A stretch of 34,511 nt of DNA, from NCBI GenBank assembly GCA_013003255.1, contig JABDJZ010000367.1, positions 1-34,511 on the forward strand, given 5' to 3'. The notes under the pieces are model-generated. The model had not been told where the DNA came from. It did no database searches and saw only the letters and a list, made by a program, of their open reading frames with translations. The DNA comes from Rhodothermales bacterium. GTDB lineage: Bacteria; Bacteroidota; Rhodothermia; Rhodothermales; UBA10348. This document shows, in pieces, positions 4,871-19,590 of the stretch. Each line of letters begins with the position of its first letter. Position 1 is the stretch's first letter. The translations under genes were made by a program, and so were the position numbers.

Positions 4871-4874
4871 GTTC

Positions 4875-7181
4875 TTAGCGGTCGATGCGGAACGGATCGG
4901 TTTCCGGACCAATCAGGTCAATGTGGAAGATCCGGTACTGCTGCGGCTTGAGCTCATTGATGGGCATCACCAGGACAGTGCCGTTCTCGTGGAGTTCGTA
5001 GGGCGGGATGTCCTCCCCTTCGCCGAACACCTTGAAGATGTTGATGAGCTCCGGACGGATATTCACCGACTCGACAGGGCGCCCGAGGGCAATACTGATC
5101 GAGGCGTTTTCCGCGATGTTGCCGTTGTCATTTGAGACGCGGACAAAGATTCGGCTCGGTCCACGCTGCTCCACGTCGGCGTTCAGACCCTGGTGAAGCC
5201 TCCACCAGTGTGCCATCTCGTCGCCGGAGGCGTTCCAGAAGTTGCCAGACTTGAGGGTGCGGGCCACGCCGCGGATCACCGCGGGATTCTGCCCGAGCAG
5301 ATCACCCGAGTAGATCAGGTTGAACAAGCCACCTTCGTACTCTGCGCGTCGAATGCCGTCCTGGATCAGGCTGGAGGCCAGGTCCATGGAGATAGTGGCA
5401 TCGCCACCCAGAATGTCCTTGTCGCTCCGTGTGGTGACACCGATTCGAGTTAGTGACTCGAAGGGTTCACCCATCAGCTTGGGGGTGGTGCGCCGACCGA
5501 TGGAGTCGGGCAGGAAGTAGGTGTAGACGCCGGCGTCCACCAGTCCGCCCATGGTCTCGTTGCTGAGCATGCCGCGCTCGGTGGAGCGGTATCCGCGGAT
5601 GGGACGGCCGCCCACGAGCCCTTCGAGGGTGCTGCGCATACGCTGCAGGCGCTGTGCCTGGGTTGACGTGGATCCGTCGCTGCGAGTCCGCAGGGTGTCG
5701 TACACGCCCACGTCACCAACATCATACATCCGGGAGACCAGCGAGCTCAGCCCCTGCGAGTTCTCCGGCTGGACAAACCATGTGCCCGGGAAGTTCTCGG
5801 CCTCGAGGACGTCAACTGCAGATCCCAGGGCATCGACATTGTCTTCTGCCACGCCGGTGATCATGCCGCCGGCGGTATAGGGATAGGGCCAGTCGTGCAC
5901 CCAGATCACCGGTTTGCGGCGGAGGTAGTTCATCATGTTGGCGAACAGCTTGCCGAGCTGGCGCCAGTCCTCACGGTCTTCCGGACCAACGCCCATGGCG
6001 TTGCGCTGGAAGCCGAGGTACACAAAGCGTCCCTTGCCGTAGTTGCCGTAGGCCATGCCGGTGGTGTTTTCCACGGCATCGGTGCTCACGAGGTCATCCG
6101 TGGCAAAGTCGTACCAGAAGCCGCCGGACTGCGTCCGCTCGGGTTCGGTAACGCGGACCTTCACACCCGGATTGTAGACCTGGATCTTGACTCGGTATCC
6201 CGACGGCACGTTGGCCGTCATGGGCGTGTTGCCCCGAAGCGTAAAGCGACGGACACCGGCGTTGGTCCGCGGATACGGAATCTGTGCCGTGGGGTCCCCG
6301 CCAATCCACGTGAAGTACGTGACTTTGACGGCGTCCGTCATCGAGCGCTCACCGGCCGTATTGCGAAGCGGTGCGCGAACGATCTCGGCACGAGCGTAGT
6401 CGCGGGTCGGCGGGTTGGTGCCCAGGGTGTCGTTCCACTCGTAGGTACGGAGCGGCGGGAAGTCCGCGGCTCTGGCCTCGGTCCGCTGGGTCTCGCGGAA
6501 AAGAAAGTCCCGGGAACTAGTCCCATCAAAGGGATCGGAACTCTCGTTTTCTGCGAGATACTCGGGCAGGTAGATGCCAGGTGGCGTGTACCCGGGGAAG
6601 GTGTCGGTGTAGACGCGGTAGTTACCTACGCCACGCTCGACAAAGCCCTGGAATTCCACACCGAAAGCCTCTTCCACAAAGCTCCAACCGCGCCAGGATC
6701 CGTCGGGACGATACACGCCCGGGGTCCACGTGGCCAACACACTTCCACCGTCCTGCATGAACTCCTTGACCCGCTGGATCTGAACGTCCGACATGGCCCT
6801 TACGGAGGGCAAAATCAGCACGTCGTAGTCCTCGAGGGAGCCCTGTTCCAGATCCGTGTCACTGATGTCACGGAACGAGATCTGGCGTTCTTTCTCGATG
6901 AGAAACTCGCGCCAGCTGAGCAGGGTCTCGTCAACCCACGTGGTCGTGGTGTCGCGGAGGTTCAGCTCACGATGGACCCGCTTCGTGTAGTCACTCTGCA
7001 GGAGCGCCACACTGGGGTTGGCCGTTTCGCCGATCGCCATCGGTGAGGCATCCCGGATGCTGAAGGCGCCCAGGGCGGACTCCAGCAGGAGGATGTACAC
7101 CAGGATCGCGGCGGCGAGAGCCGTGACGCCGAGCGTCACAAACCAGAGCGTGTTGATCCTTTCGAGTCGAGGCAGTGCCAT
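4875..7181 (-). CDS. Membrane-anchored exported protein: N-terminal TM/signal anchor + GATase1-like domain (with large insertion) + NodB-fold (motifs degenerate) + C-terminal beta-sandwich; paralog of 2990-4870
   Basis: ATG at 7181. INTLWFVTLGVTALAAAILVYILLL is a TM helix. EDYDVLILPSVRAMSDVQIQRVKEFMQDGGSVLATW parallels the downstream paralog. FPGTWFVQPENS ... PIRGYRS ... ASGDEMAHWWRLH parallels ATFFVTTDE ... LYPPGGY ... VNEVLRWWTLR. Confidence 0.75.
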   Translation of the reverse strand: MALPRLERINTLWFVTLGVTALAAAILVYILLLESALGAFSIRDASPMAIGETANPSVALLQSDYTKRVHRELNLRDTTTTWVDETLLSWREFLIEKERQISFRDISDTDLEQGSLEDYDVLILPSVRAMSDVQIQRVKEFMQDGGSVLATWTPGVYRPDGSWRGWSFVEEAFGVEFQGFVERGVGNYRVYTDTFPGYTPPGIYLPEYLAENESSDPFDGTSSRDFLFRETQRTEARAADFPPLRTYEWNDTLGTNPPTRDYARAEIVRAPLRNTAGERSMTDAVKVTYFTWIGGDPTAQIPYPRTNAGVRRFTLRGNTPMTANVPSGYRVKIQVYNPGVKVRVTEPERTQSGGFWYDFATDDLVSTDAVENTTGMAYGNYGKGRFVYLGFQRNAMGVGPEDREDWRQLGKLFANMMNYLRRKPVIWVHDWPYPYTAGGMITGVAEDNVDALGSAVDVLEAENFPGTWFVQPENSQGLSSLVSRMYDVGDVGVYDTLRTRSDGSTSTQAQRLQRMRSTLEGLVGGRPIRGYRSTERGMLSNETMGGLVDAGVYTYFLPDSIGRRTTPKLMGEPFESLTRIGVTTRSDKDILGGDATISMDLASSLIQDGIRRAEYEGGLFNLIYSGDLLGQNPAVIRGVARTLKSGNFWNASGDEMAHWWRLHQGLNADVEQRGPSRIFVRVSNDNGNIAENASISIALGRPVESVNIRPELINIFKVFGEGEDIPPYELHENGTVLVMPINELKPQQYRIFHIDLIGPETDPFRIDR

Positions 7182-7225
7182 CGTTTCGGTGGTCGGGGTG
7201 GAGGTGGATTACGGAGAGGTTGGAC

Positions 7226-7657
7226 CTACAGCCAGGCGTAGCCTTCGTCCTGCTGGGACTGCTGCTGCTGCTGAGGCGGGGCCTGCTGAGCCTGCTGCTG
7301 CTGGACCTGCTCCTGCTGCGGGTTCACCGGCACAAAGCCTTCGTCGGTGTACTCCCAGAAGAGCGAGTTGGGATTCTGACCCTGCTGCGGGGCCTGCAGC
7401 TGCTGACGCTGTGCCTGCTGGCCAGGGGCCGGCTGGTACATCGACGCAGAAGCGGGAGCCGTCTGCTGGATCATGGGCTGCTGGCCTTGAGGAGCAACCA
7501 ACACGTGGGGCTCCTGCTGGAGGTAACCGGTGTGCTGCTGCGTCGTCCGGGCCTTGCCCTCACGAATCTTGTAAAGGATGTAGGCGGCCACTGCCAGAAT
7601 GAACGTGGCAATCGTTCCTACAAGGATGATTGTCGAGAGAATCGGGACTAGTTCCAT
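7226..7657 (-). CDS. Small single-pass membrane protein with glutamine-rich low-complexity tail
   Basis: Preferred ATG at 7657 (MELVPILSTIILVGTIATFILAVAAYILYKIREGKAR: one TM followed by positive charges, so the tail is predicted cytoplasmic). The ORF-track start at 7681 is a GTG. The tail has 35 Q in ~104 residues by my count and ends ...QQDEGYAWL. It is co-directional with the flanking operon genes. The + strand ORFs over the same CTG/CAG repeats read as poly-Leu/Ala-Pro shadows. Confidence 0.6.
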   Translation of the reverse strand: MELVPILSTIILVGTIATFILAVAAYILYKIREGKARTTQQHTGYLQQEPHVLVAPQGQQPMIQQTAPASASMYQPAPGQQAQRQQLQAPQQGQNPNSLFWEYTDEGFVPVNPQQEQVQQQQAQQAPPQQQQQSQQDEGYAWL

Positions 7658-7818
7658 GATGGTCGCGCCGTGGTGGCGCACTTAGGTTTCAATTCGCCTG
7701 AACAATCATCAAGCACTGTGCCCAAATCGGCGATGGCCCTTTTTGAGCCGTTTTGAGGGTTTTGTCTTCGATTTGCAGTCTCATTCTGCAACTGGAATCA
7801 AAATGAGATCGATGATCT

Positions 7819-9312
7819 CTATTGTTTGGACCCACTTCCGATGCGCTCCAGCTTGCCCCACGTCATACCAATGCCGAGGAATTCCTCGATGGTGGCGAAC
7901 GTCTTACAGACGTCAACGATGAGGATGAAGAAGAGCCGGTAGAAGAGTGAGTAGAAGACAAGGCGCGCTTCTTCCTTCTCCACGGCCACGCAGTACAGCG
8001 CGGCTATCAGGTCCAGAATGGTGAGACTGAGCCACCAGTAGACCAGGTAATAGCTCATGTCGAACACGAGCGCGATGAAAATGAAGTAGGCGTTCGCGAA
8101 GATGTTCATGATGGGCCAGATGAGGGCCTCGAAGGCCATCGACCACATCACAATCGTTCCACCGAAGTTGATGGTCGGATTGAAGAAGAGATCCTTGTGC
8201 TTGCGCACGGCCTGAATGATGCCGCGCGTCCAGCGGTACCGCTGCTTCAGCAGATCCACGATGGAATCCGGTGCCTCCGTATAGGACTTGGCATCCGGCT
8301 CGTACTCCACGCGCCAGCCGGCACGGATGATCTTGAGCGTGATGTCCGCGTCCTCAGCAAACGTGTCGGAGCTGTACCAGCCCGCGTCCACGATGGCCTG
8401 CTTGCGGAAGAGACCCAGCGGACCGGGAATGATGTTGACCAGCTTAACGATGGACTGCGCGGAGCGGGCCATATTGAGGCCTTCCACGTATTCCAGCGCC
8501 TGCAGTGTGGTCCACACGTTGTCGCGGTTGAGCACCTTGACATTGCCGGCGATAGCGCCGAGCCGGGGATCCACGAAGTGCCGGATGGTCTTTCTGAGGG
8601 TGTCCGGGGACAGCTGCGAGTCGCCATCCACGTTGAGGACGTAGTCGTGGCGCGACACCTGGATGCCCGCGTTCAGGGCCGTAGCCTTGCCGCCATTTGG
8701 CTTCTCCACCAGGCGGACTTCCACGGCGCCCTGCCGGTAGATGCCCACGAGTTCACGGGCAACGCCGCGGGTATCGTCCGTGGACCCGTCGTCCACCAGG
8801 AGTATTTCGTACTGCGGGTAGTCCATCTCGAGCAGGGAGGCCACGGTGGACTGTAGAAGTTTGCCCTCATTGAACGCCGGCACGATGATCGACACCGGCG
8901 GGAGGAAGTTGGGGTCATGCCCCTCCTCTATGGTGTGTTTCGTGGTGTTCAGGTACGCCATGTTCATCAGGCTCAGGTACCGGAACAGCAGAATCACCAG
9001 GAACAGCACCAGCGCGACGATCGAGGAGTACACGATCAGCCCGCTCCAGGAGAGCGACACCGGCTCATTGGTCCATCGCGTCAGGTATCCACCCGGATCC
9101 TCCATGAAGAACCAGATGATCCCGAACAGGATCAGTGAGAGGAATCCGTAGATGACAATGCGCCTGACGATGACCGCTTGGTCCTCGCGCGGCCCGACCA
9201 TCCCCTCATCAGAGCGGCGAACGGGCTGGAACTGCGTGCGGCTCAGAGATTCCTCTCTCTGGGCCGGGGGCGCAGATGCAGGCTGATTGTCAGTTTTCGT
9301 TTCGTCGGCCAT
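7819..9312 (-). CDS. Processive family-2 glycosyltransferase (PgaC/IcaA/NodC/BcsA-type membrane-embedded polysaccharide synthase)
   Basis: IIVPAFNE...LLVDDGSTDDT (UDP-binding D), NVDGDS (DxD), TFAEDAD (TED-like acceptor motif) and LKQRYRWTRG (Q-x-x-RW processivity motif). Two predicted TM helices lie before the catalytic domain and about three after it. There is a ~55-aa polar N-terminal extension and no PilZ or other fused sensor domain. Confidence 0.9.
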   Translation of the reverse strand: MADETKTDNQPASAPPAQREESLSRTQFQPVRRSDEGMVGPREDQAVIVRRIVIYGFLSLILFGIIWFFMEDPGGYLTRWTNEPVSLSWSGLIVYSSIVALVLFLVILLFRYLSLMNMAYLNTTKHTIEEGHDPNFLPPVSIIVPAFNEGKLLQSTVASLLEMDYPQYEILLVDDGSTDDTRGVARELVGIYRQGAVEVRLVEKPNGGKATALNAGIQVSRHDYVLNVDGDSQLSPDTLRKTIRHFVDPRLGAIAGNVKVLNRDNVWTTLQALEYVEGLNMARSAQSIVKLVNIIPGPLGLFRKQAIVDAGWYSSDTFAEDADITLKIIRAGWRVEYEPDAKSYTEAPDSIVDLLKQRYRWTRGIIQAVRKHKDLFFNPTINFGGTIVMWSMAFEALIWPIMNIFANAYFIFIALVFDMSYYLVYWWLSLTILDLIAALYCVAVEKEEARLVFYSLFYRLFFILIVDVCKTFATIEEFLGIGMTWGKLERIGSGSKQ

Positions 9313-9342
9313 CGTTATACCAGTTTGGCTGCCAGGACCACC

Positions 9343-12300
9343 CTATAGGGTCCAGGAAAGCGCTGCAGACAACGTGAATGTGTTGTAGCTGTCGATGAAG
9401 CTTGTTGCCCCGGATCCCAGGGATCGGGTGGACTGACCCAGCGAACCGGACATGTTGAATGACCAGTTAGCGGCCAGGCGCTTGATCCAGTCCATCTCCA
9501 CGCGTCGTGAGACGAACCCGGAGGAGCGTGCCACGATGCCCATGGCTCCGCGAAGCCGGATGTAGGACTGGAACGGGATGTTCTTCTCGTACTCCAGGAA
9601 GAGGTCGTACGAGGAGTAATTGCGGGGCGAGAAGTACAGATCGGTCCGGGACCGGTAGTCGATCTGGTAATAGGTGATGCCCAGCCACGTGTTCGGGACG
9701 ACGCGATAGGACGCCTCGAGCAGGATGTTCGTACCGAAGTTGGTGTCGTTCGCCGTACCCGGGGTGCCGAAGTTGTCACGGACCACGTTGAAGGACACGT
9801 TTCCGTGCAGACGAAGGGTCGAGTCCGGCATCACGCTTGGCACGAAGCCCTGGAAGTTCAGCTGCGTCAGGCGGAGGTTGTACTCGCCGCCGGCCGGTGA
9901 CCAGAGATCAATGGAGCCTTCGCCTACCCGCAGGCCAACGGATCCGCGATACACACCCGGATCCTGCCTCCAGTAGCGGATGCCACCGAATCCAACGGTA
10001 CGGCCACCTTCGTAGTCGTAAATCCCTACCTCGCCGGAGAGGCGATTCGTGTAGGCCGCGTGGTTGTACTGCATCTCGGGAGGCGTCAGGTCGCGGTATC
10101 CGGCCGCGAAGACCTGGTTGACGCGTCCGCGGGTCTCGGCAGATCCTGGAATGAGTTGGCGGGTACCCTCAATGAAGTGCGAGTTCACGCCGGCCATGAA
10201 CACGGTGCCGTATCCCCACGGGATGGTCACGTGCGTCTGCATGCCCTGTGCCCAGCGGTCATAACGCGTGCCGCCACCGCGGGCCAGGACGGCCTCGGCC
10301 ACGGGCACGATGATGCCGGCAAAGTCCAGCCCCTGCCACTCGCCGCTCTGCGCCAGACTCTGGCGCATGCTGAGGTCGAGGGCAGCGGAGCGCTCCTCAA
10401 CGGTTTCAGAGGCATCAGCCAGGGCCTGCGCATCCGCATAGACGGCCTCGGCCTGCGTAAAGAGACCCAACTCCCGGTAGGCATCCGCCTGAAGGAAGCG
10501 AACCTCGTAGTCACGCGGGTTGCGCGTAGCGAGATCCTCGAGGGTGCGAAGTGCACCGGAGTAGTCCTCGCGGTAGTACTGGTTGCGCGCGATCTCCTTG
10601 GCCACGTCGTACTCCCAGGCCTGCTGCTGCAGCGCGTTGAGAATCGAAAGTGCGGCCACGTAGTCGGCAGCGGCCGAATGGACCTGCGCCAGCTCCTTCA
10701 GCTCCGAACGGGAGCGGCGGCCCTGGGCCTCGAAGTAGTCTTCGTACGCAGCGATGGCCTGATTGAACTGGCGTGCCGCCGCCAAACGACGCGCGTTGTT
10801 CAGTACCTCAATGCGATCCGCCTCGGCGGTTCGAATCCGCTCGCGGGCCACCAGCTGGGCCACGGTCGAGATGCGGGTGTCAAATCGGGAGTCGTTCAGG
10901 GCGTCCGCCGTACGGACGTAGTTGTCGGCGGCCTCCACATCACCCCGGAGGAGACGGTACTCGGCCAGTACCAGCAGAAGTTCTGGATCGGTCTGACCGA
11001 CGGTCCCCATCAGGTTGTCGACATAGGCTTCGCCCAACTGGTCCAGATCACCCATCGAAATGGAAGCCAGGACGAAGAGGCGCTGGAACCCTGTGTTGTC
11101 CGGCTGGCGATCCAGCAGGTAGTCGGCCTGCTGCAGAGCCTGCTCGTAGTAGCCGCGGGACTGAAGTGCCTCCGCGAAATCGCCCCGGAGTGCATCATTG
11201 CCGGGCTCGACGCTGAGCAATTCGGCGTAGGTCTCGAAGGCGTCCTCGTCACGGCCCAGCACCAGGTAGTGCGTTGCAATCTCACGGAGGGCTTCGCGGT
11301 TGCCGGGATTGGCCACCAGGATGTCCTCAAGCTCCATCACGCGGCGCTCGGCCACGGCCAGACGCATCTCGGCGATGGTGCGCAGACGGTTCTGGTACCC
11401 GGGGTTGCCCGGATCGCCGTAGCGTGCGTCCGTCAGGACATCCAATGCTTCCTGAACACGACCGGCTTCGGCGAGCTCATCCACCAGGGCGAATCGCGTG
11501 CTGGTGTCGCTCGGGTCAAAGGCCAGCCGATAGGTCAGGCGGTCAATGGCAAAAATGGGCGTTCCGGCACGGACGAGTCCGTCATCCACCCTGACGAAGG
11601 CGGTGAGCCAGCGACGGCCATCGCCGTGCCGATCCTCGAGAATTCGGAGCTGATCCCAGGCCTCCGCATACCGGTCATACTTGATCAACTGGTCTACGAG
11701 GCTGAAGCGCTTCTCGTCATCACCCGGCGTGGAGCGCAGTTCGCGATACAGGCGATCCACAATGAATTCCGGTGCCGGCTGAACGGGACCGCGGCGCTCC
11801 ACGGAGCGCAGGCCGGCCTGAGCGCGCTGGTTGTAGCGTCTCCACTGGTTGGTCCGGCGGTGCCGCGGCGCGAGGTAGTCCAGATTCTGCTTGGCCTCGA
11901 AGTAGCGGCGGTTCTCCAGTAGGAGGCCCACCAATTCGAAGCGCTTGGCGTCCTGATTGGGGCTGGCCATCAGCTCCCGGGTCAGGACATCAATGGGATA
12001 GGTCGAGAGACGGGACCGACCGCCGTCATCCAGGCGTGCCAGCTGAGTGGAAACCGAGGTCCAGCGGGTCTGCCAGCGGTCGGAATCGCCGTGGCGGGTA
12101 CGCAGGTATTCCAGATTCTGACGGGCCTCGAAGTAGCGATCATCGCCGATCAGCAGGTCGACCAGCTCAAAACGAGTCTCGTCCTTGCTGGGATTGGCCA
12201 TCAATTCCCGCGTCTTCACGTCGATCGGGAAGGTGGACAACTGCTGCGGTGTCGCCGTCAGGCCGCGTGTAACTGCACGGTCGCGACTCTTCCATTCTGT

Positions 12301-13209
12301 CTCGGCTCCGCGACGATCCGCCATGAGGTCCAACTGCTGCCGGGCCTCGAAGTAGCGCTCGGCCTGGATGAGCAGGTCGATGAGTTGGTAGCGGCGAGCG
12401 TCATCATTCGGATTGGCGCGAACCTCGCGGAACGCCACGTCAATCGGGAAGGTGGAGGAGCGGGCAATCACATCGGGATTGCGGGCCTGCAACTGGCAGT
12501 CCTGCGCTTCCTTGTTGCCCGGGTTGAGCAGTAGAGACTGTTCGCAGGCCTCAAGCGCGCCGGCATAGTTACCCTGCCACAGTCGAAAGAAGCCGAGGCG
12601 CATCCACAGGTCATCGTCAGTCGTGTAGATCTCCACGTACTCGGTGGCCACCGACTCACCAAGCGCGTTGTCGCCCTGGTAGTTGGCGATCGCGATCAGG
12701 TAGCGCTGGACGATGTCCGGTGTGCCCTGGGTCTGATCCAGATAGATGCTGTACTGCTCGGCAGCCTCCCGGTAGTACTGCGCGTCGAACAGGGCGTCCG
12801 CATAGCGGATCTGAAAGGAGAGGTTGTCCGGGTTGGCCTCAACCAGTCGTCGGAGGCTCCCCAGATTTCCGGTGTTCGGCGAACGATTCCCTCGAATGGC
12901 CTGTAGTCCCTCCAGAGCCTCACTATTGGCGGGATCGATCTCCAGGACCGTCCGGTAGTCCGCTTCCGCGGCGTCTTCATTGCCCAACAGGCGCTGAGCC
13001 TGTGCCCGCAGCAGCAGGGCACGGGTGTCCAGGGTGCCCGGCTGAATGACGCCGTTCAGGATGGTCAAGGCCTCATCGTAGCGACCCTGCTCAATGGCAG
13101 TTTCCGCTCTCGCCTGGGCCGCAACATCCTGGGCGTTTAGAGAAACAGGCGTGGTCGCCACGAGAATCGCGGCGACCAGACTGGCAAATAGGTACCTGTA
13201 TGAGGTCAT
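9343..13209 (-). CDS. 1288-aa outer-membrane export component: signal peptide + long TPR/helical-repeat periplasmic region + C-terminal ~330-aa beta-barrel (PgaA/BcsC/PelB/NfrA-like architecture)
   Basis: MTSYRYLFASLVAAILVATTPVSLNAQD is a signal peptide. TPR-like A/L/Y/E-rich helical pairs run through ~residue 950. From ~958 the sequence switches to alternating Y/G/N/S/T-rich beta-strand patterns (GIRYWRQD, NLRLTQLNFQGF, WLGITYYQIDYRS, DLFLEYEK, TFTLSAALSWTL). Confidence 0.85.
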   Translation of the reverse strand: MTSYRYLFASLVAAILVATTPVSLNAQDVAAQARAETAIEQGRYDEALTILNGVIQPGTLDTRALLLRAQAQRLLGNEDAAEADYRTVLEIDPANSEALEGLQAIRGNRSPNTGNLGSLRRLVEANPDNLSFQIRYADALFDAQYYREAAEQYSIYLDQTQGTPDIVQRYLIAIANYQGDNALGESVATEYVEIYTTDDDLWMRLGFFRLWQGNYAGALEACEQSLLLNPGNKEAQDCQLQARNPDVIARSSTFPIDVAFREVRANPNDDARRYQLIDLLIQAERYFEARQQLDLMADRRGAETEWKSRDRAVTRGLTATPQQLSTFPIDVKTRELMANPSKDETRFELVDLLIGDDRYFEARQNLEYLRTRHGDSDRWQTRWTSVSTQLARLDDGGRSRLSTYPIDVLTRELMASPNQDAKRFELVGLLLENRRYFEAKQNLDYLAPRHRRTNQWRRYNQRAQAGLRSVERRGPVQPAPEFIVDRLYRELRSTPGDDEKRFSLVDQLIKYDRYAEAWDQLRILEDRHGDGRRWLTAFVRVDDGLVRAGTPIFAIDRLTYRLAFDPSDTSTRFALVDELAEAGRVQEALDVLTDARYGDPGNPGYQNRLRTIAEMRLAVAERRVMELEDILVANPGNREALREIATHYLVLGRDEDAFETYAELLSVEPGNDALRGDFAEALQSRGYYEQALQQADYLLDRQPDNTGFQRLFVLASISMGDLDQLGEAYVDNLMGTVGQTDPELLLVLAEYRLLRGDVEAADNYVRTADALNDSRFDTRISTVAQLVARERIRTAEADRIEVLNNARRLAAARQFNQAIAAYEDYFEAQGRRSRSELKELAQVHSAAADYVAALSILNALQQQAWEYDVAKEIARNQYYREDYSGALRTLEDLATRNPRDYEVRFLQADAYRELGLFTQAEAVYADAQALADASETVEERSAALDLSMRQSLAQSGEWQGLDFAGIIVPVAEAVLARGGGTRYDRWAQGMQTHVTIPWGYGTVFMAGVNSHFIEGTRQLIPGSAETRGRVNQVFAAGYRDLTPPEMQYNHAAYTNRLSGEVGIYDYEGGRTVGFGGIRYWRQDPGVYRGSVGLRVGEGSIDLWSPAGGEYNLRLTQLNFQGFVPSVMPDSTLRLHGNVSFNVVRDNFGTPGTANDTNFGTNILLEASYRVVPNTWLGITYYQIDYRSRTDLYFSPRNYSSYDLFLEYEKNIPFQSYIRLRGAMGIVARSSGFVSRRVEMDWIKRLAANWSFNMSGSLGQSTRSLGSGATSFIDSYNTFTLSAALSWTL
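11380..12456 (-). repeat. Five tandem in-frame ~71-79-aa protein repeats inside the TPR/porin gene
   Basis: Units start at residues ~252, 325, 402, 481 and 552. The pattern is S-T-[FY]-P-I-D-V-x-x-R-E-[LV]-x-A-N-P-x-x-D-x-x-R-[FY]-[EQ]-L-[IV]-D-L-L-I-x-x-x-R-Y-F-E-A-[RK]-Q-x-L-[DE]-[YL]-[LM]-x-x-R. At DNA level the 15-mer GGCCTCGAAGTAGCG recurs at 11893, 12124 and 12343 (spacings 231 and 219 nt), and GTC[AG]ATCGGGAAGGTGGA recurs twice. Confidence 0.85.
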
Positions 13210-13224
13210 GACGTTTGGTCGGGA

Positions 13225-14475
13225 TTAAGCCTCGTCCATCGCATAAGTGAGAAACTCGTCTGCACTTTGGAATGGGCGGCCGTCGGGGACGACGATCGCA
13301 GAGACGGCGTGCAGCAGGTGATCTGCCTGCTGGGGCGCGTCTGCGCGGAGTCGGTTTTTGAGTCGTGCGAAGAAGCCTTGCGCTTCCTCGGGCTTGCTGT
13401 CAGCGAGCAGCACGACAAGCCGCTCGTTAATGGCGCTGATCAGCATGTCATCCTGGGGACGGAGGCTATCCGCTACCAGGTCGATAATGAATTCAAAGTC
13501 CACCGGACCGGACTCCGAGGTCTGGTCCATGCGCATGGCCAGCAGGAGAAACGGATTCGCTCCGTCCTCGCGGTCAGCGAAGAACTCCTGGAGTCTCTTG
13601 CCGAAGGCGCCACGGTTCGAGTAGCGCTCAAATGCGTCTTCCTTCTCCACCTTTGGCGCGGCGGTCTCCGCTCCCGTGACATCCGGGGCGACATGGGGGA
13701 ATTGGGGGGGCTTGGGAGCGGCCGGGGCGGTCTGACGGGCGGTCTCCGTAATCACGGGTGTCTGTCCCGGCGTCTGGACGATGTCGGCAAGGTCCCAATG
13801 ACGAACCACCTGGCGCTTGATTTGCCCAATGTGCGGGATGAGGGTCAGACGGCGCTCCGTGCTCGTCATCTCCTCATCAGCGGCCTCAATGTGAATGGCT
13901 CCGGTCATCTGTCCGGCCATGAAGTCAATCACGCGGCGGGACTGGGGGTTGGCCGGCTCCGGCAGCGCAACCACGACCGTGGTGTCCAGCGAATCGATCT
14001 GCTCCAGCATGCGGATGAACTCCATCCGGAACCGGTCGAATGACCTGAACATGACAAACGGCATGAAGTCGTTGATCACCAGGCGATCCGGCCGCTGCTT
14101 GCGAATGATGGTCACCAGATCCCACAGGGCCTTCGCCACGGAGTCATCACCCATCGCCTGGGGATTCATCATCGGGGGAATCCGCATCAGGCGAATCAGG
14201 CCATCCTGCTGCGCCTGCTTCAGATCAAATCCAATGGACGCGGCCTGAATGACCAGGTCCTTGGGGCGATCCGAAGCAATGAAAAGGCAGCGCTCCCCGC
14301 CCTGGACACCGGTCTGGGCGTAGCGCAACGTCAGGAGTCCGCGGCCGGTAGCCGCGCGTCCGAAGGTGAGGTAGGCCCCACCTTTGTAGAGACCACCCCA
14401 TTCCTCATCGAGCGGATCGATGCCGGAAGGGAGCATTGCGGCGAAAGCGGACATGCTTGCTGGCGTGTCTTTCAT
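13225..14475 (-). CDS. KaiC/RecA-superfamily-like domain (degenerate Walker A) + Pro/Ala-rich linker + degenerate GGDEF-like domain; first gene of the operon, candidate regulator
   Basis: ATG at 14475. LPSGIDPLDEEWGGLYKGGAYLTFGRAATGRGLL resembles the KaiC/RadA N-terminus, but the P-loop reads G-RAAT-G-R-G instead of GxxxxGK[ST]. RLVINDF is Walker-B-like. The C-terminal half, FERYSNRGAFGKRL...FLLLAMRMDQ...SLRPQDDMLISAINERLVVLLADS...AVSAIVV...ADEFLTYAMDEA, follows the GGDEF-domain layout without a GG[DE]EF motif. Confidence 0.8.
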   Translation of the reverse strand: MKDTPASMSAFAAMLPSGIDPLDEEWGGLYKGGAYLTFGRAATGRGLLTLRYAQTGVQGGERCLFIASDRPKDLVIQAASIGFDLKQAQQDGLIRLMRIPPMMNPQAMGDDSVAKALWDLVTIIRKQRPDRLVINDFMPFVMFRSFDRFRMEFIRMLEQIDSLDTTVVVALPEPANPQSRRVIDFMAGQMTGAIHIEAADEEMTSTERRLTLIPHIGQIKRQVVRHWDLADIVQTPGQTPVITETARQTAPAAPKPPQFPHVAPDVTGAETAAPKVEKEDAFERYSNRGAFGKRLQEFFADREDGANPFLLLAMRMDQTSESGPVDFEFIIDLVADSLRPQDDMLISAINERLVVLLADSKPEEAQGFFARLKNRLRADAPQQADHLLHAVSAIVVPDGRPFQSADEFLTYAMDEA

Positions 14476-15092
14476 AATGAGCAGGCAGAGAGTTCGATGG
14501 AGCTGGGAGCCGGTATCCGCTTTATCAAACGGTATGCCGAGATTCCCTCAACTCCCCCAGAACGCCCAAAACAGGCTGTTTCGACTGGTTTCGCGTTTCT
14601 CATTGCCTTGATTCCTGTTAGTCCAATCCCTGTTTGAGATCGGTATCGACACGCCGGTCCGGGTTTTGGAGCCGACGCGCAATGGGTTGGATCGGCGGGA
14701 AATCCAGTTCCTCAAGCCTCAGAAGACCCAAGAATGCCCGCACCGGGACCTCTGACCGAGGCTGGACCGGAAGAGCGGCAGCACACAATCAGCCGATGCG
14801 GGATCTCATCCGGAGAACGGCAGGAAGCTTGTAAAGGGGTGTCACCGGGGCCACTGAAGCGGTCTCCACATCCCTGTCATCCTGATTCACTCTCGGTCTC
14901 ACATTGAGCGAACCTCGTCCCATTCGGCGCTTGCCGCTCATCGAAAACGGCCATTTCAGGCCTAAATCGAAGCTTTGGACCACTCGGCGTGAGATTGGCC
15001 CGAACCTTGATGACATGATTCTCGACCGCACCGCGGCCTACCCGGATCAACTTGACATTCGACCCATGTCGGATACGAATCCAACACTTGCC
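14476..15092. promoter_or_regulatory. Long divergent intergenic region, presumed to hold the promoters/leaders of the polysaccharide operon (-) and of the beta-propeller lipoprotein gene (+)
   Basis: About 600 bp with no convincing ORF; only short arginine-rich or out-of-context ORFs are present. GC looks lower than the flanks. I could not recognise specific promoter motifs. Confidence 0.4.
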
Positions 15093-16985
15093 ATGAAGCG
15101 CAGCACTCTTCTCAGTATGAATACCGCGTCCCGCCGAATCGGGCTCACGTGCATTCTCTTTCTCTCCGTCCTTCTTTCGGGATGCGACATCTTCGGAGAG
15201 GCGTTCGACGAACGCGCCCCGAGCGTGCAGTTGGACCGTCCCTTTGAGGGCGCGCGACTCACTGGCGCCAACGCCATTGTCGCCGTCAACGCGGAGGCCC
15301 TGGGAGATGACAACTACATCTCCTTTGTCAATGTCCAGTTGGACGGACTGCGCGTGGGCGAAGCTGAGTGGGATGGCGGGCGTTATGCGCTGCGTCTGAA
15401 CACGTTTGAGCTTGCCGACGGCCTTCACCGCCTTGAGGCGGTTGCGTTTGACCGGTACCAGGCCCGTGGCATTTCCGCGCCGATCACCATTGAGGTGGAG
15501 AACATCAGCGCCGGAGACGGCCCCGTGATGCAGATCCTCGAGCCGGAAGACGGCCAGGCCGTATCCGGGACGGTTCGGGTGTTGGCGCAGCGTGGAGCCG
15601 GACAGCCTCCGGTCTCGCGCGTGGACCTCATCGTAGATGGCATCCCCTTCTACAGCACCTCGACTTCCGTGGGCGGCGATGCCTATGCCTTCGACTGGGA
15701 CACCTCCCAGTTCTCCGGCGGCAGCCATGTGATCGAGATCAAGGCCTACAGCGGTGATGAGGTCTTTCGCCTGAACGGACCCATCTCAGTGATCGTGGGT
15801 GGCAACGACGAAGAGGGAGGAGGCACGTCCACTGGCGCCGGCACCCTGGCATTCCGCGGCACCGGCCTTGCGGGCGAAATCAAGGGGTCCGTGGCCGTCG
15901 GTTTCAACGACGACATCTATGTGGGCTCCTCCAACAACACCCTGTATGCCTTCGACAACACCGGTGAGCTCCGCTGGGAGCGCGAAACCAAGGGTCCCAT
16001 CCGCTCCACTCCGGTAGTCGGCAACAACGAAGACGTCTTCGTAACGAGTGAGGATGGCCGCCTCTGGGGCTTTACCTCGGACGGCAACGACCTCTGGGCC
16101 GTCCCCTACAACAGCGCCGCTCCGCTCCGCTCATCCCCAGCGATGGGAGTCGATGGCGTCCTGTACTTCGGTGACACCTTCGGCAATCTGCACGCCGTCA
16201 ACTCCTTCAACGGCCTGTCAGCATGGACGAACCCGGTCAAGGTTGTTGACGGGTCCATTGTGGAAGCGCCGGTCATCACCCGTGACCACACCGTAATCGT
16301 GGCCGATTCCCAGGGACGGCTCTCCGGCTATGACCGGATGGGCACGCTCCTCTGGCAGTCCCAGATTCGCGGTTCCGGCGTCTGTGGGGGTGGTACCGCC
16401 CGGGCTCCGATGGCACTTGCCGAGATCCAGCTTACCGTTGAACTGCCCACAGGTGAGATCAGAAGCTCTACCGAGGCACTCATCTACGTGATGGCGGATG
16501 ACGGCTGCCTCTACGCCTACAGTGGCTTTGACGGGTCCCGCCTCTGGCACTACGCGGTTGGTGGCTCCCGCGTCTCCGGTCCCATCATTGACGAGAGCGG
16601 TACCATCTACGTGGGCACCGAGACGGGTCTCTTCTCCTTCAATGAGACCGCCGATGCGCTCACGCCGCGCCTCCGCTACAAGTTCGTCGCAGACGATGTT
16701 GGAATGCCGGCGATCGATACCAATGGCGTCATCCACTTCGTCGCCGGACGAACGGTCATGGCCATCAACACCAACGGAACGCCTTACTGGGAGTACCCGC
16801 TCAGTACGCTTTCCGATGGGCCGGTCACCATCAACCGCTCAGGGCAACTCCTGATTGCGGGTCGGAACGGCCACCTGTTCGGGCTCAACACGGCCTCGGC
16901 CGGGCTCGCCCGGGGTAAGTGGCCCATGTACGGCCGCAATGCCCGCCATACCGGTCGGATCGGCATCGACGCCAACGACGGCTAG
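15093..16985 (+). CDS. Lipoprotein with two Ig-like domains and a PQQ-like (BamB-type) beta-propeller
   Basis: Lipobox LLSGC follows MKRSTLLSMNTASRRIGLTCILFLSV. Candidate starts are ATG 15093 or 15117; the ORF-track start at 14904 adds a non-signal extension. Two ~90-aa Ig-like segments are present (ARLTGANAIVAVNA...; QAVSGTVRVLAQ...). Repeated propeller blades follow (LYAFDNTGELRWE, LWGFTSDGNDLW, LHAVNSFNGLSAW, LSGYDRMGTLLWQ, LYAYSGFDGSRLWH). The C-terminus carries GKWPMYGRNARHTGR. Confidence 0.8.
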   Translation: MKRSTLLSMNTASRRIGLTCILFLSVLLSGCDIFGEAFDERAPSVQLDRPFEGARLTGANAIVAVNAEALGDDNYISFVNVQLDGLRVGEAEWDGGRYALRLNTFELADGLHRLEAVAFDRYQARGISAPITIEVENISAGDGPVMQILEPEDGQAVSGTVRVLAQRGAGQPPVSRVDLIVDGIPFYSTSTSVGGDAYAFDWDTSQFSGGSHVIEIKAYSGDEVFRLNGPISVIVGGNDEEGGGTSTGAGTLAFRGTGLAGEIKGSVAVGFNDDIYVGSSNNTLYAFDNTGELRWERETKGPIRSTPVVGNNEDVFVTSEDGRLWGFTSDGNDLWAVPYNSAAPLRSSPAMGVDGVLYFGDTFGNLHAVNSFNGLSAWTNPVKVVDGSIVEAPVITRDHTVIVADSQGRLSGYDRMGTLLWQSQIRGSGVCGGGTARAPMALAEIQLTVELPTGEIRSSTEALIYVMADDGCLYAYSGFDGSRLWHYAVGGSRVSGPIIDESGTIYVGTETGLFSFNETADALTPRLRYKFVADDVGMPAIDTNGVIHFVAGRTVMAINTNGTPYWEYPLSTLSDGPVTINRSGQLLIAGRNGHLFGLNTASAGLARGKWPMYGRNARHTGRIGIDANDG

Positions 16986-17097: not shown

Positions 17098-17730
17098 CTA
17101 CTGTCTGAGCAGCACCGAGCGGGATCGCTCCAGGAGCCGCCCCTCCTCATCGAATGCGTCGAACCAGATGCGGTGGGGGCTCTCGTCCAGGAAGCCCGCG
17201 ATTCCAGTCATGTCCAGGCTGGGCACGTCTGAGTCCACCCGGCCAACCACCGAGGCCGTCTCGTCATCCCAGATCACCAGTCGGTAGCTGCTGGCACCGC
17301 CTACGTCATGCCAGTCCAGCGTCCCCAGCGGCCCACTCATTGTTATCATGCGGGACGTTTCGGCAGAGCCGCCCACGACTTCGGTAAGCCCGCGGTCCAC
17401 GCCGGCCCGGTACGCAACCACCACCGTGGTCAGGAACGCCGTGAGGCAGACCAGAATGACGGTGGTCCATAGTATGACCCCCAGTCGGGCACTCTGCGTC
17501 AGCAGCGGTCTCCGCCGGGGCGGCAGGGAGACTGAGGTCAGGGGCGGTCTGCTCGAGGACTGGCCGTCGCCCTCCGACTCCAGTAGCTGGTTTGCGGCTG
17601 AAAGGATCTCCCGGGCATCCTCATCGGATCGAAGGAAATCGGCGACGTCTTTTCTGCGGCTCGGCGAAAGCCTGCCGGCCAGATAGGCCGCCAGGGTATA
17701 TTCGTCAATACCGCGACCTGCAAGTCGCAT
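17098..17730 (-). CDS. Single-pass membrane protein with an anti-sigma-factor-like N-terminal helix and a small extracytoplasmic domain
   Basis: ATG at 17730. IDEYTLAAYLAGRLSPSRRKDVADFLRSDEDAREIL resembles the anti-sigma N-terminal helices, but without Cys/His zinc ligands. LGVILWTTVILVCLTAFLTTVVVAY is a TM helix. The C-terminal ~95 aa are beta-rich (SSYRLVIWDDE). Confidence 0.55.
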   Translation of the reverse strand: MRLAGRGIDEYTLAAYLAGRLSPSRRKDVADFLRSDEDAREILSAANQLLESEGDGQSSSRPPLTSVSLPPRRRPLLTQSARLGVILWTTVILVCLTAFLTTVVVAYRAGVDRGLTEVVGGSAETSRMITMSGPLGTLDWHDVGGASSYRLVIWDDETASVVGRVDSDVPSLDMTGIAGFLDESPHRIWFDAFDEEGRLLERSRSVLLRQ

Positions 17731-17901: not shown

Positions 17902-19590
17902 ATGGACTCTGATCTGCGATCCATCCAGCAGGCACGGGAGCTTCTTCGAGAGGCACGGGCCGCCCAACACCTGGCCAAGAAACTGGACCAGGAGGCCGTG
18001 GACCGGATCGTGACGGCCATGGTCCGGGCCGGCGCATCCCAGGCGGATCGGCTTGGGCGCCTCGCACATCAGGAGACCGGGTTCGGAAAGCCGGAAAGCA
18101 AAAAGGAGAAGAACCTCTTTGCTACCCAGACCCTCCATGAGCGCATGGAAGGAATGCGCACGGTCGGGATCATTCGAAAGCTTGAGGGCGACACGATCTG
18201 GGAGGTGGCCAGCCCGATGGGTGTCGTGGCCGCGCTGATTCCGTCGACCAATCCCACCTCCACGGCCATGTATAAAGCCATCATCGCGGCCAAGGCACGC
18301 TGTGCGGTGGTGATGAGTCCCCACCCTCGGGCGCGCAACTGTACGGCCGACGCCCTGTCTGTGGTCGCGGAGGCCGCGTATCGGGCCGGGGCGCCGAAAG
18401 GGCTGTTTGGATGCATGACCGAGGTAAGCCTGGCCGGTACACAGGCGTTGTTGGAGGATCCCGAAGTGGATCTGATCCTGGCCACCGGGGGGACAGCCAT
18501 GGTGAAAGCGGCCTACTCGAAAGGGAAACCCGCCTATGGCGTAGGATCCGGGAACGTACCTGTCTATGTGGATCGCAGCGCTGATGTGTCAAAGGCTGCG
18601 CGAGACCTGGTGCACGGAGCCAGCTTTGACTGGGGAACGCTGTGCTCGACCGAACGCAGTATTGTCTGTGACCTGCCTGTCCGCGAGGCCCTCCTGCAGG
18701 GGCTTAAAGCAGCCGGCGCGTACCTGGTCACAGAGAGGGAGCGCCCAATGCTGGAGGCAGCGGTCGTCGTGAATGGGGCACTGAACATTGAGCAGGTCGG
18801 CAAGTCACCCGAGGCCATCGCCGACATGGCCGGTTTCAAGGTACCCCGGGGAACGCGCGCGCTCATTGCGGAAGCCACCAAGGTCGGCGCGGCTGATCCG
18901 CTGTCCCGCGAGACCCTCTCACCCATCATGACCCTCTACACGGCGGACGGCTGGGAAGCCGGATGTGAGCGGTGCATGGAAATCCTGGCCTATGGGGGGA
19001 TGGGACACACGCTGGCCCTTCACGCCGGCAATGAGCGAATCATTGAGGCATTCGCCCTTCAGAAGCCCGCGATGCGCATCGTGGTCAATTCCGTATCCGC
19101 CCTCGGATCGGTGGGGTATACAAACCGCCTGTTCCCGGCCATGACGCTTGGCCCCGGGACCGTGGGTGGCTCAATCACCAGCGACAACATCTCTCCCCTG
19201 CACCTGCTCAACATCAAGCGGGTGGCCTTCGAAACCAACCCGGTTACCAGTCGTGGCCGCTCCTCGGAGCCGGTGTCTGGCGTGAAGCGCGGCAAAGCGA
19301 GCTCTTCGGGGGGAGCCGGCGGCAAGGCCGGAGCCCCGACCAACCTGGCAAGTCCAGCCCGCGCGACAAAGTCAGGGCCCGCCTCATCGTGGATTGACGA
19401 GATCGAATCACGCCTCCGGGACCGGGCCGGCAATCCGGTGCACTCCACCTCCGCTGCGCCGCTCTCCGGTCCCGCCGGCAGCAAGTCATCCGCCGGCAGC
19501 AAAGCATCCGCCGCCACTTCGAAGGGCGAATCGGACGCTGGCTTGAGTGACGCTGAGATAGACGCTCTTGTCCGGGAATTCAGACGCTGA
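17902..19590 (+). CDS. CoA-acylating aldehyde dehydrogenase (AdhE N-terminal/EutE/PduP-like ALDH family) with a ~115-aa low-complexity C-terminal extension
   Basis: MDSDLRSIQQARELLREARAAQ, IPSTNPTST, catalytic-Cys context WGTLCSTERS and GMGHTLALH are typical of acetylating aldehyde dehydrogenases. From ~19241 the sequence becomes S/A/G/K-rich. Confidence 0.85.
   Translation: MDSDLRSIQQARELLREARAAQHLAKKLDQEAVDRIVTAMVRAGASQADRLGRLAHQETGFGKPESKKEKNLFATQTLHERMEGMRTVGIIRKLEGDTIWEVASPMGVVAALIPSTNPTSTAMYKAIIAAKARCAVVMSPHPRARNCTADALSVVAEAAYRAGAPKGLFGCMTEVSLAGTQALLEDPEVDLILATGGTAMVKAAYSKGKPAYGVGSGNVPVYVDRSADVSKAARDLVHGASFDWGTLCSTERSIVCDLPVREALLQGLKAAGAYLVTERERPMLEAAVVVNGALNIEQVGKSPEAIADMAGFKVPRGTRALIAEATKVGAADPLSRETLSPIMTLYTADGWEAGCERCMEILAYGGMGHTLALHAGNERIIEAFALQKPAMRIVVNSVSALGSVGYTNRLFPAMTLGPGTVGGSITSDNISPLHLLNIKRVAFETNPVTSRGRSSEPVSGVKRGKASSSGGAGGKAGAPTNLASPARATKSGPASSWIDEIESRLRDRAGNPVHSTSAAPLSGPAGSKSSAGSKASAATSKGESDAGLSDAEIDALVREFRR

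Follow-up and report, generated by a model that had tools for sequence, protein, structure and literature searches.

To our knowledge, synthase-dependent exopolysaccharide (EPS) systems are nearly always gated post-translationally by cyclic di-GMP (c-di-GMP), and the receptors that we know of (PilZ, PelD, BcsE, PgaCD and MshEN) are, with few exceptions, proteins of Proteobacteria and Firmicutes. YdaK of Bacillus subtilis and PssE of Listeria are GGDEF receptors of GT2 EPS operons in which only the inhibitory site, or I-site, is left. Here we study a protein of 416 amino acids encoded on the reverse strand, at positions 13225 to 14475, of a stretch of 34,511 nucleotides from a Rhodothermales bacterium (assembly GCA_013003255.1, contig JABDJZ010000367.1); "the window" denotes this whole stretch. 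The protein is made of a KaiC-like pseudo-ATPase domain, a linker and a pseudo-GGDEF domain. The reading that we favour, and give somewhat more than an even chance, is that it acts in the cytosol as a non-catalytic subunit, regulatory or scaffolding, of an EPS system that probably resembles those making poly-N-acetylglucosamine (PNAG): a counterpart of BcsE, with predicted nucleotide sensing. The broader statement, that it regulates or scaffolds this EPS machinery without catalytic activity of its own, is likely.

In the cellulose system of Escherichia coli, a synthase-dependent EPS system, BcsE is composed of degenerate NTPase, REC and GGDEF domains, in that order, the last with an I-site. 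Its NTPase domain, RecA-like but eroded, forms dimers, and BcsF, a single-pass peptide, recruits this domain by its cytosolic tail; c-di-GMP is kept beside the synthase by the I-site of the GGDEF domain (PMC7439463, PMC11470070). The initial annotation of the window held that a KaiC-like pseudo-ATPase joined to a pseudo-GGDEF domain, in an EPS operon, was an undescribed architecture: this has to be withdrawn, since BcsE already pairs a degenerate RecA/KaiC-like NTPase with an I-site GGDEF domain in such a system. PelD, for its part, binds c-di-GMP via R367, D370 and R402 of a GGDEF-like domain without the GGDEF motif (PMC2170427).

The likeness to BcsE is one of design. Both proteins have a RecA/KaiC-like P-loop domain and, after it, a GGDEF domain with an RxxD motif, the two domains being degenerate; both operons encode a small single-pass membrane protein, BcsF in the case of BcsE; and BcsE assists a synthase-dependent EPS system from the cytosol, the role proposed here for the 416-residue protein. 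On the other hand, where BcsE has its degenerate REC domain, this family has a disordered linker (15 to 365 residues, median 122), whose score in the predicted local distance difference test (pLDDT) is below 50 here. The partners BcsR and BcsQ are missing, the operon having no MinD/ParA-type BcsQ; the synthase is a PgaC-like GT2 without PilZ, and not a BcsA with its PilZ domain; and the P-loop, eroded in BcsE, is conserved as GxxxxGR. Alignments with hhalign of the family profile to E. coli BcsE and to a profile of 20 BcsE sequences were not significant (probability below 1% for the latter), and the protein has no match to CBP_BcsE (PF10995) in Pfam. Membership of the BcsE family is rejected on these grounds, together with the missing REC domain and the missing BcsRQ and BcsA(PilZ) partners. 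The only local hhalign match, of RPQD..NERLVVLL on RTGD..GNRLVLFL of BcsE, itself of probability below 1%, is a lead only. The protein repeats a known design, that of degenerate GGDEF receptors of EPS systems in the layout of BcsE, but in a polysaccharide system other than that of BcsE and in a sequence family that is new; what is new with respect to BcsE is the lack of a REC domain, the PgaC-like synthase, the lack of detectable homology and a selected Lys-to-Arg P-loop.

Other systems share parts of this design. PelD also has a GGDEF fold without GG[DE]EF, an RxxD motif (with a downstream Arg in PelD) and a place in an EPS operon, and it is among the best structural matches (PMC2170427); however, it sits in the membrane, has a GAF domain and lacks a P-loop domain, whereas the N-terminal part of our protein is a soluble KaiC fold. 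Identity with PelD is rejected, since the protein has no transmembrane or GAF part and its PelD_GGDEF match is below threshold. YdaK, whose context is described in PMC7064775, and PssE are degenerate GGDEF proteins encoded beside a GT2, and act as c-di-GMP receptors for polymer production; unlike the protein studied here, they are membrane-anchored, lack a KaiC-like domain and belong to Firmicutes. FlaH/ArlH and the single-domain archaeal KaiC-like proteins share with it a single KaiC fold of about 230 residues, and are nucleotide-binding regulators and not motors, but FlaH has a canonical Walker A Lys, no GGDEF-like domain and a place in the archaellum.

That the segment from 13225 to 14475 is a real gene follows from more than 150 clusters of homologues and from conserved synteny. 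A word-indexed search yields 167 relatives, a scan of one genome per species yields 168 loci that encode them, and an exhaustive profile hidden Markov model (HMM) search of 1.84 billion representatives yields 157 clusters at E<=1e-30, nearly every one of which has both domains in this arrangement. The family is uncharacterised and, as far as we have seen, confined to Rhodothermota and Ignavibacteriota-related lineages. The AlphaFold2 model, built on an alignment of 77 sequences, has a mean pLDDT of 85. It confirms the Pro/Ala-rich linker noticed initially: residues 238 to 277 (positions 13645 to 13764), rich in Pro, Ala and Thr, are the part with pLDDT below 50, and linkers across the family contain 20% Pro and 13% Ala. 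The linker is hypervariable in length, and in one homologue (L027) it bears an expansion of EEPTYR-like repeats.

The N-terminal domain, residues 14 to 232 (positions 13780 to 14436), has the KaiC/RadA-type layout first proposed for it, on the joint evidence of Pfam, the PDB, AlphaFold2 and Foldseek. The KaiC family of Pfam (PF06745) matches residues 16 to 175 with E=4.2e-17 (62.7 bits, for a cut-off of 26.6), HMMER retrieves KaiC chains of the PDB with E-values down to 8.7e-22, and the modelled domain matches KaiC in Foldseek with E~1e-14. Foldseek also returns the single-domain KaiC-like protein FlaH (4yds), with a template modelling (TM) score of 0.79 normalised to the target; some homologues are automatically annotated as FlaH.

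The Walker A equivalent is GRAATGRG, at positions 14338 to 14361. HMMER aligns it to GTPGTGKT of KaiC, and translation and alignment agree with the initial annotation that the invariant Lys is replaced by Arg (K52 to R45) and the Thr by Gly (T53 to G46); the segment departs from the pattern GxxxxGK[ST]. The alignment brings out further losses: the Walker B Asp, D145 in KaiC, is N135, within RLVINDF (positions 14065 to 14085; aligned to RVVIDS), and the catalytic pair E77 and E78 has become S68 and D69. Four of the five catalytic positions of KaiC are non-conservatively replaced, the fifth being the Asp that stands for E78. With K to R, T to G, D to N and the Glu pair turned into Ser and Asp, the domain is predicted to lack hydrolytic competence, which is one component of the reading favoured above.

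The C-terminal domain, residues 281 to 416 (positions 13228 to 13635), is where structure prediction carries most of the argument. The best Pfam match of the 416-residue protein there, GGDEF_2, is sub-threshold (E=0.011; 16.4 bits for a cut-off of 24.5), as is PelD_GGDEF (E=0.14), and Pfam gives no match to GGDEF proper (PF00990). Among 77 members of the family, GGDEF_2 matches 67 (best E=3.5e-7), GGDEF 10 (best E=0.0045), PelD_GGDEF 5 (best E=0.0038) and CBP_BcsE 2 (best E=0.031). The AlphaFold2 model of residues 278 to 416 has a pLDDT of 88.6 and a predicted TM score (pTM) of 0.84, and shows the elements of the GGDEF core: helix alpha0, beta1, alpha1, the beta2-beta3 hairpin, alpha3, beta4 and alpha4. 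In Foldseek, all 45 PDB matches of the domain at E<=1e-3 are GGDEF domains, with TM scores of 0.6 to 0.67; they include active cyclases, FimX and PelD, the last with the lowest root-mean-square deviation (3.6 Å) and the highest identity (20-26%). The model and these matches support the fold that had been assigned to this half from sequence.

The secondary structure of the model also gives the position of the motifs. RPQD (residues 339 to 342, positions 13450 to 13461) lies directly before the five residues of strand beta2 (343 to 347), which are followed by AINER (residues 348 to 352, positions 13420 to 13434) and strand beta3. AINER occupies the hairpin position of GG[DE]EF, and the loss of this motif, as initially claimed, is borne out; the coordinates given for it then, 13417 to 13431, correspond to INERL and are off by one residue. 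Counted from the GGDEF-equivalent position, the Arg of RPQD is at -9 and the Asp at -6, exactly the spacing of the I-site of PleD (PMC2170427), which upholds the placing of RPQD at the RxxD inhibitory site. When the protein is aligned by tblastn to a hand-written GGDEF consensus, with a weak score (E=0.16), R315 coincides with the leading Asp of the DxD strand, and a four-residue gap takes the place of FKxxND, the guanine-binding segment. As modelled, the domain is a GGDEF fold that cannot act as a cyclase: it would be unable to make c-di-GMP because it has no GG[DE]EF motif and an Arg replaces the metal-binding Asp of beta1.

A further rival is that the protein has catalytic activity after all, as a non-canonical ATPase, as an autokinase, or as a cyclase whose active site is unusual. 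The conserved glycines of the P-loop, and the pair E351/R352 at the hairpin of the former active site, could form an alternative site. We consider this very improbable in view of the replacements at the catalytic positions of KaiC, where only E78 has a conservative substitute, and of the absence of both the GGDEF motif and the beta1 metal Asp, with FKxxND deleted in the consensus alignment.

The P-loop has lost its catalytic residues and is nevertheless strongly conserved. In 120 close homologues, few stretches of the protein are as well conserved: G39 and G44 are each found in 119, and R45 in 117. Near-invariance of these three residues indicates a P-loop that is under selection, not one that is decaying. 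The loop had been described as dead; the substitutions are real, and the conservation is at odds with the rest of that description. In RecA-type P-loops, the change of Lys to Arg classically retains ATP binding and abolishes hydrolysis, as in RecA K72R.

In the same 120 homologues, D342 of the RxxD motif is present in 119 and R339 in 92. E351 and R352 are nearly invariant in the Rhodothermales clade, where the basic helix alpha3, FFARLKxRLR, is conserved too; R371, K373, R375 and R377 are the conserved residues on this helix of the 416-residue protein, and one of them may stand for the additional Arg that PelD (R402) and PleD (R390) have on helix alpha3. Within the Rhodothermales clade, strong purifying selection is seen at four sites: the glycines and Arg of the P-loop, RxxD, the E351/R352 pair and the basic helix. 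Binding of c-di-GMP at RPQD is, on this sequence evidence, a putative property to which we grant a little less than an even chance.

The family is wider and more varied than the close homologues suggest, with two main clades. Members of the Rhodothermales clade are 34-93% identical to the 416-residue protein, and those of a clade of Ignavibacteriota, Melioribacteraceae and Chlorobiaceae metagenome-assembled genomes (MAGs) 25-28%, over the full length. Walker A reads GRAA[ST]GR[GDS] in the former and mostly GxRKSGRT in the latter, with a canonical GE[RK]KTGKT in genomes of the Ignavibacterium album type; Walker B reads hhhNDF in the former and hhFDE in the latter. The I-site position is usually RxxD in the Rhodothermales clade and [DEN][KR]KD in the Ignavibacteriota-type clade, where the beta2-beta3 hairpin is two residues shorter than in the Rhodothermales clade (and in our protein) and the E351/R352 pair is not conserved. 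The few members that combine GE[RK]KTGKT with a Walker B DE are of the Ignavibacterium type (L057, L060, L067 and L069). Taken in order, GKT, then GRT in most Ignavibacteriota, then GR[GDS] with N-D, the P-loops read as a series of graded natural degeneration.

States of the motifs were also counted over 268 members with both domains; these counts are not phylogenetically independent. Walker A is GK[ST] in 9 members, none of which has RxxD; GR[ST] in 69, of which 22 have it; GRx in 163, of which 109 have it; and of another form in 27, of which 8 have it. Arg replaces Lys in 232 of the 268 (87%) and is the dominant and selected state of the P-loop in this family. RxxD is present in 139 of the 268 (52%), mostly in the Rhodothermales-type clade, which has the most degenerate P-loop. 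The RxxD that was put forward as a putative I-site has thus its canonical position in the 416-residue protein, but is not a feature of the family as a whole, being missing from the Ignavibacteriota-type clade.

These variations give some weight to a different view, in which the protein is an ATP-bound, non-hydrolysing switch and not a c-di-GMP receptor: the KaiC-like domain would be sensory and oligomerising, and the GGDEF-like domain an output or interaction module of the GGDEF_2 type that has no cyclic dinucleotide as ligand. The conservation of Gly-x4-Gly-Arg in Walker A and the prevalence of the Lys-to-Arg change are what one would expect from it, given that RecA-type mutants of this kind classically bind ATP without hydrolysing it; Ignavibacterium-type members keep GKT and a Walker B DE, and most Ignavibacteriota have GRT and DE. 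FlaH, a close structural match, is an ATP-binding KaiC-like protein; the C-terminal domain matches GGDEF_2 best in Pfam, and RxxD is missing in half of the family. We know of no role of the GGDEF_2 family in c-di-GMP signalling. However, the 416-residue protein has Gly in place of the Mg-coordinating Thr and Asn in place of the Walker B Asp, which makes binding of Mg-ATP doubtful, and the strong conservation of RxxD, E351 and R352 in the Rhodothermales clade points to a ligand or partner site in the C-terminal domain. We hold this alternative to be unlikely, though it is the rival that deserves most attention.

We now turn to the neighbourhood of the gene. On the reverse strand, it is followed by five genes that complete a block (2990 to 14475) in the order regulator, TPR/barrel protein, GT2, small single-pass membrane protein, 768-residue protein, 640-residue protein. 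The second gene (9343 to 13209) starts 15 nucleotides after the stop codon of the first, and its product, the most conserved neighbour, has 1288 residues, a signal peptide and TPR matches in Pfam. Matches to PgaA and BcsC in NCBIfam are weak, below cut-off and all inside the TPR region; the C-terminal region has no family match in Pfam or NCBIfam, and the beta-barrel that we place there is inferred. The third gene (7819 to 9312) encodes a membrane GT2 synthase of PgaC/IcaA type, by its matches to GT2 in Pfam, to TIGR03937 (E=5e-58, below cut-off) and to hyaluronan and cellulose synthases in the PDB; on this sequence evidence, it is a processive membrane synthase. Pfam detects in it no PilZ or other recognised c-di-GMP domain, in keeping with the earlier remark that the GT2 carries no fused c-di-GMP sensor.

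The remaining three genes lie at 7226 to 7681, an open reading frame for a 151-residue single-pass membrane protein with a Gln-rich tail, found with the GT2 in all full operons; at 4875 to 7181, for a membrane-anchored protein of 768 residues with a GH42M-like domain by domain search; and at 2990 to 4912, for a secreted paralogue of 640 residues with a CE4 polysaccharide-deacetylase domain (Polysacc_deac_1, E=1.2e-5). The last two are syntenic, and their open reading frames overlap by 38 nucleotides. Both exported paralogues have a GH42M-like (glutamine-amidotransferase-like) N-terminal part, and only the 640-residue protein matches CE4. The 151-residue protein has one N-terminal transmembrane helix, a stretch that is 70-78% identical even in Ignavibacteriota loci, and its gene always accompanies the GT2; by analogy, one may speculate that it is a partner of the PgaD or BcsF kind.

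Synteny was counted in 35 Rhodothermales loci, those in which the locus extends 8 kb or more beyond the start of the gene. The full six-gene block follows the regulator in 18 of them; among the Ignavibacteriota-type loci, the GT2 is downstream in 21 of 22, and the other genes of the block in 20 of 22. The loci with the block include L003, L006, L007, L009, L010, L017, L019 and L053-L081. Its order is common to Rhodothermales and to Ignavibacteriota, Melioribacteraceae and Chlorobiaceae MAGs, at 25-28% identity of the regulator, and the block has the appearance of a synthase-dependent EPS operon of a type of its own, not yet described. In seven Rhodothermales loci only the TPR partner is kept, in some with GlmS and CE4 genes just upstream: glmS lies a few kb upstream in L004 (6845-8683) and L005 (3405-5243), and L005 also has two CE4 deacetylase genes. 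The presence of glmS and CE4 genes near loci with the TPR gene alone fits a polymer based on N-acetylglucosamine (GlcNAc).

About 9 of the 35 Rhodothermales loci, including that of Rhodocaloribacter litoris, have an intact gene and no adjacent EPS genes. In seven loci (L002, which is R. litoris CP076718, L016, L018, L024, L036, L051 and L068), the orphan regulator gene abuts genes for PIG-L and LeuRS, the same pair that, in the window, borders the EPS block at its distal end (13 to 2795). Deletion of the five EPS genes, with the intact regulator left in place, is the simplest explanation. PIG-L was considered as a member of the operon and rejected: it stays beside LeuRS in genomes without the EPS genes. 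The claim that the gene is the first of an EPS operon thus stands by synteny across two phyla, but does not hold for about a quarter of the Rhodothermales loci.

Could the protein be a general-purpose regulator with other targets, adjacent to the operon by ancestry only? The orphan copies beside PIG-L and LeuRS, in R. litoris and six other loci, preserve all the motifs, and the seven loci with the TPR partner alone can be read in the same way. We judge this quite unlikely: gene order is kept across two phyla while the regulator has diverged to 25-28% identity, and the EPS genes of the orphan genomes could lie elsewhere.

Upstream of the regulator gene and in the opposite orientation, positions 14904 to 16985 encode a protein of 693 residues with Big_7 Ig domains and a BamB/PQQ-like beta-propeller; its gene is syntenic with the regulator in 15 of the 35 Rhodothermales loci, and the Ignavibacteriota loci lack it. 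Beyond it lie the gene of a 210-residue protein (17098-17730, reverse strand) with an anti-sigma-like N-terminus, one transmembrane segment and no Pfam match and, adjoining that gene, one for an aldehyde dehydrogenase-family protein (17902-19590, forward strand) with a long Ser/Ala/Gly-rich C-terminal tail. A scan of 12900-15100 for promoters and terminators gave nothing above chance.

Several observations speak against a c-di-GMP-sensing counterpart of BcsE, and have to be set beside those above. The window contains no GGDEF, EAL or PilZ gene, and tblastn with hand-written GGDEF, EAL and PilZ consensuses, over the window and 1.35 Mb of related loci, finds only the C-terminal domains of the family, at E=0.16 or weaker; these related loci sample the same neighbourhood repeatedly, which makes the negative weak evidence. 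No c-di-GMP riboswitch or other Rfam match is found in the window or in 14380-15000. The link of the 416-residue protein to GGDEF is sub-threshold at the level of sequence, and a profile HMM search of the PDB with the C-terminal domain returns chance matches and no GGDEF chain; what supports the GGDEF assignment is therefore structure prediction combined with Foldseek, along with Pfam matches that are weak. No homology to BcsE was detected. R339 is replaced by Gly in 22 of the 120 close homologues, and RxxD is absent from all nine GK[ST] members and replaced by [DEN][KR]KD in Ignavibacteriota. Finally, there are the orphan loci, and the most constant neighbour is an exported TPR protein, presumably of the outer membrane, which is out of direct reach of a cytosolic protein. 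A literature search on c-di-GMP in Ignavibacteria, Rhodothermus and Salinibacter gave nothing usable, and one on KaiC, GGDEF and EPS gave only the BcsE paper and no description of the family of the 416-residue protein.

The folds, the states of the motifs, their conservation and the synteny are observations; ligand binding, contact with the synthase and the identity of the polymer are what we infer from them. If the protein is indeed a non-catalytic regulator of this EPS system, its KaiC-like domain would most likely be an oligomerisation or docking module, possibly still able to bind a nucleotide, and would be joined by a flexible Pro/Ala-rich tether to a minimal GGDEF-fold domain. In the Rhodothermales clade, the latter would be the likely sensor of c-di-GMP or of a related nucleotide, and binding of the ligand would help to activate or assemble the GT2 synthase together with the small single-pass protein, its partner. 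The polymer, probably based on GlcNAc and PNAG-like, would leave the cell by way of the TPR/barrel protein, and the two deacetylase-like proteins of the periplasm would modify it.

A bolder conjecture, which we think improbable as it stands, is that regulatory input was handed over from ATP to c-di-GMP within one conserved polysaccharide operon. The ancestral regulators would have been ATP-driven proteins of KaiC type, with GKT and DE, such as are still present in Ignavibacterium-type genomes. Fixation of the Walker A Lys-to-Arg change would then have locked the protein, in most lineages, in an ATP-bound state without hydrolysis. Last, the Rhodothermales clade would have lost Mg coordination, with GR[GDS] and a Walker B N-D, while its GGDEF-like domain gained RxxD.

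The family would be the first candidate gatekeeper of a PNAG-like system in Rhodothermota and Ignavibacteriota, and the second, apparently independent, case of a pseudo-NTPase combined with a pseudo-GGDEF domain after BcsE. Recurrence of this combination suggests that it is a functional solution, and not an enterobacterial oddity. A natural family with a Lys-to-Arg P-loop is also a ready-made system for studying the role of a non-hydrolysing RecA-fold domain in a secretion machine. If the hand-over did take place, these lineages of Rhodothermota and Ignavibacteriota would have an unrecognised type of synthase-dependent EPS system, in which a BcsE-like regulator evolved independently of the enterobacteria.

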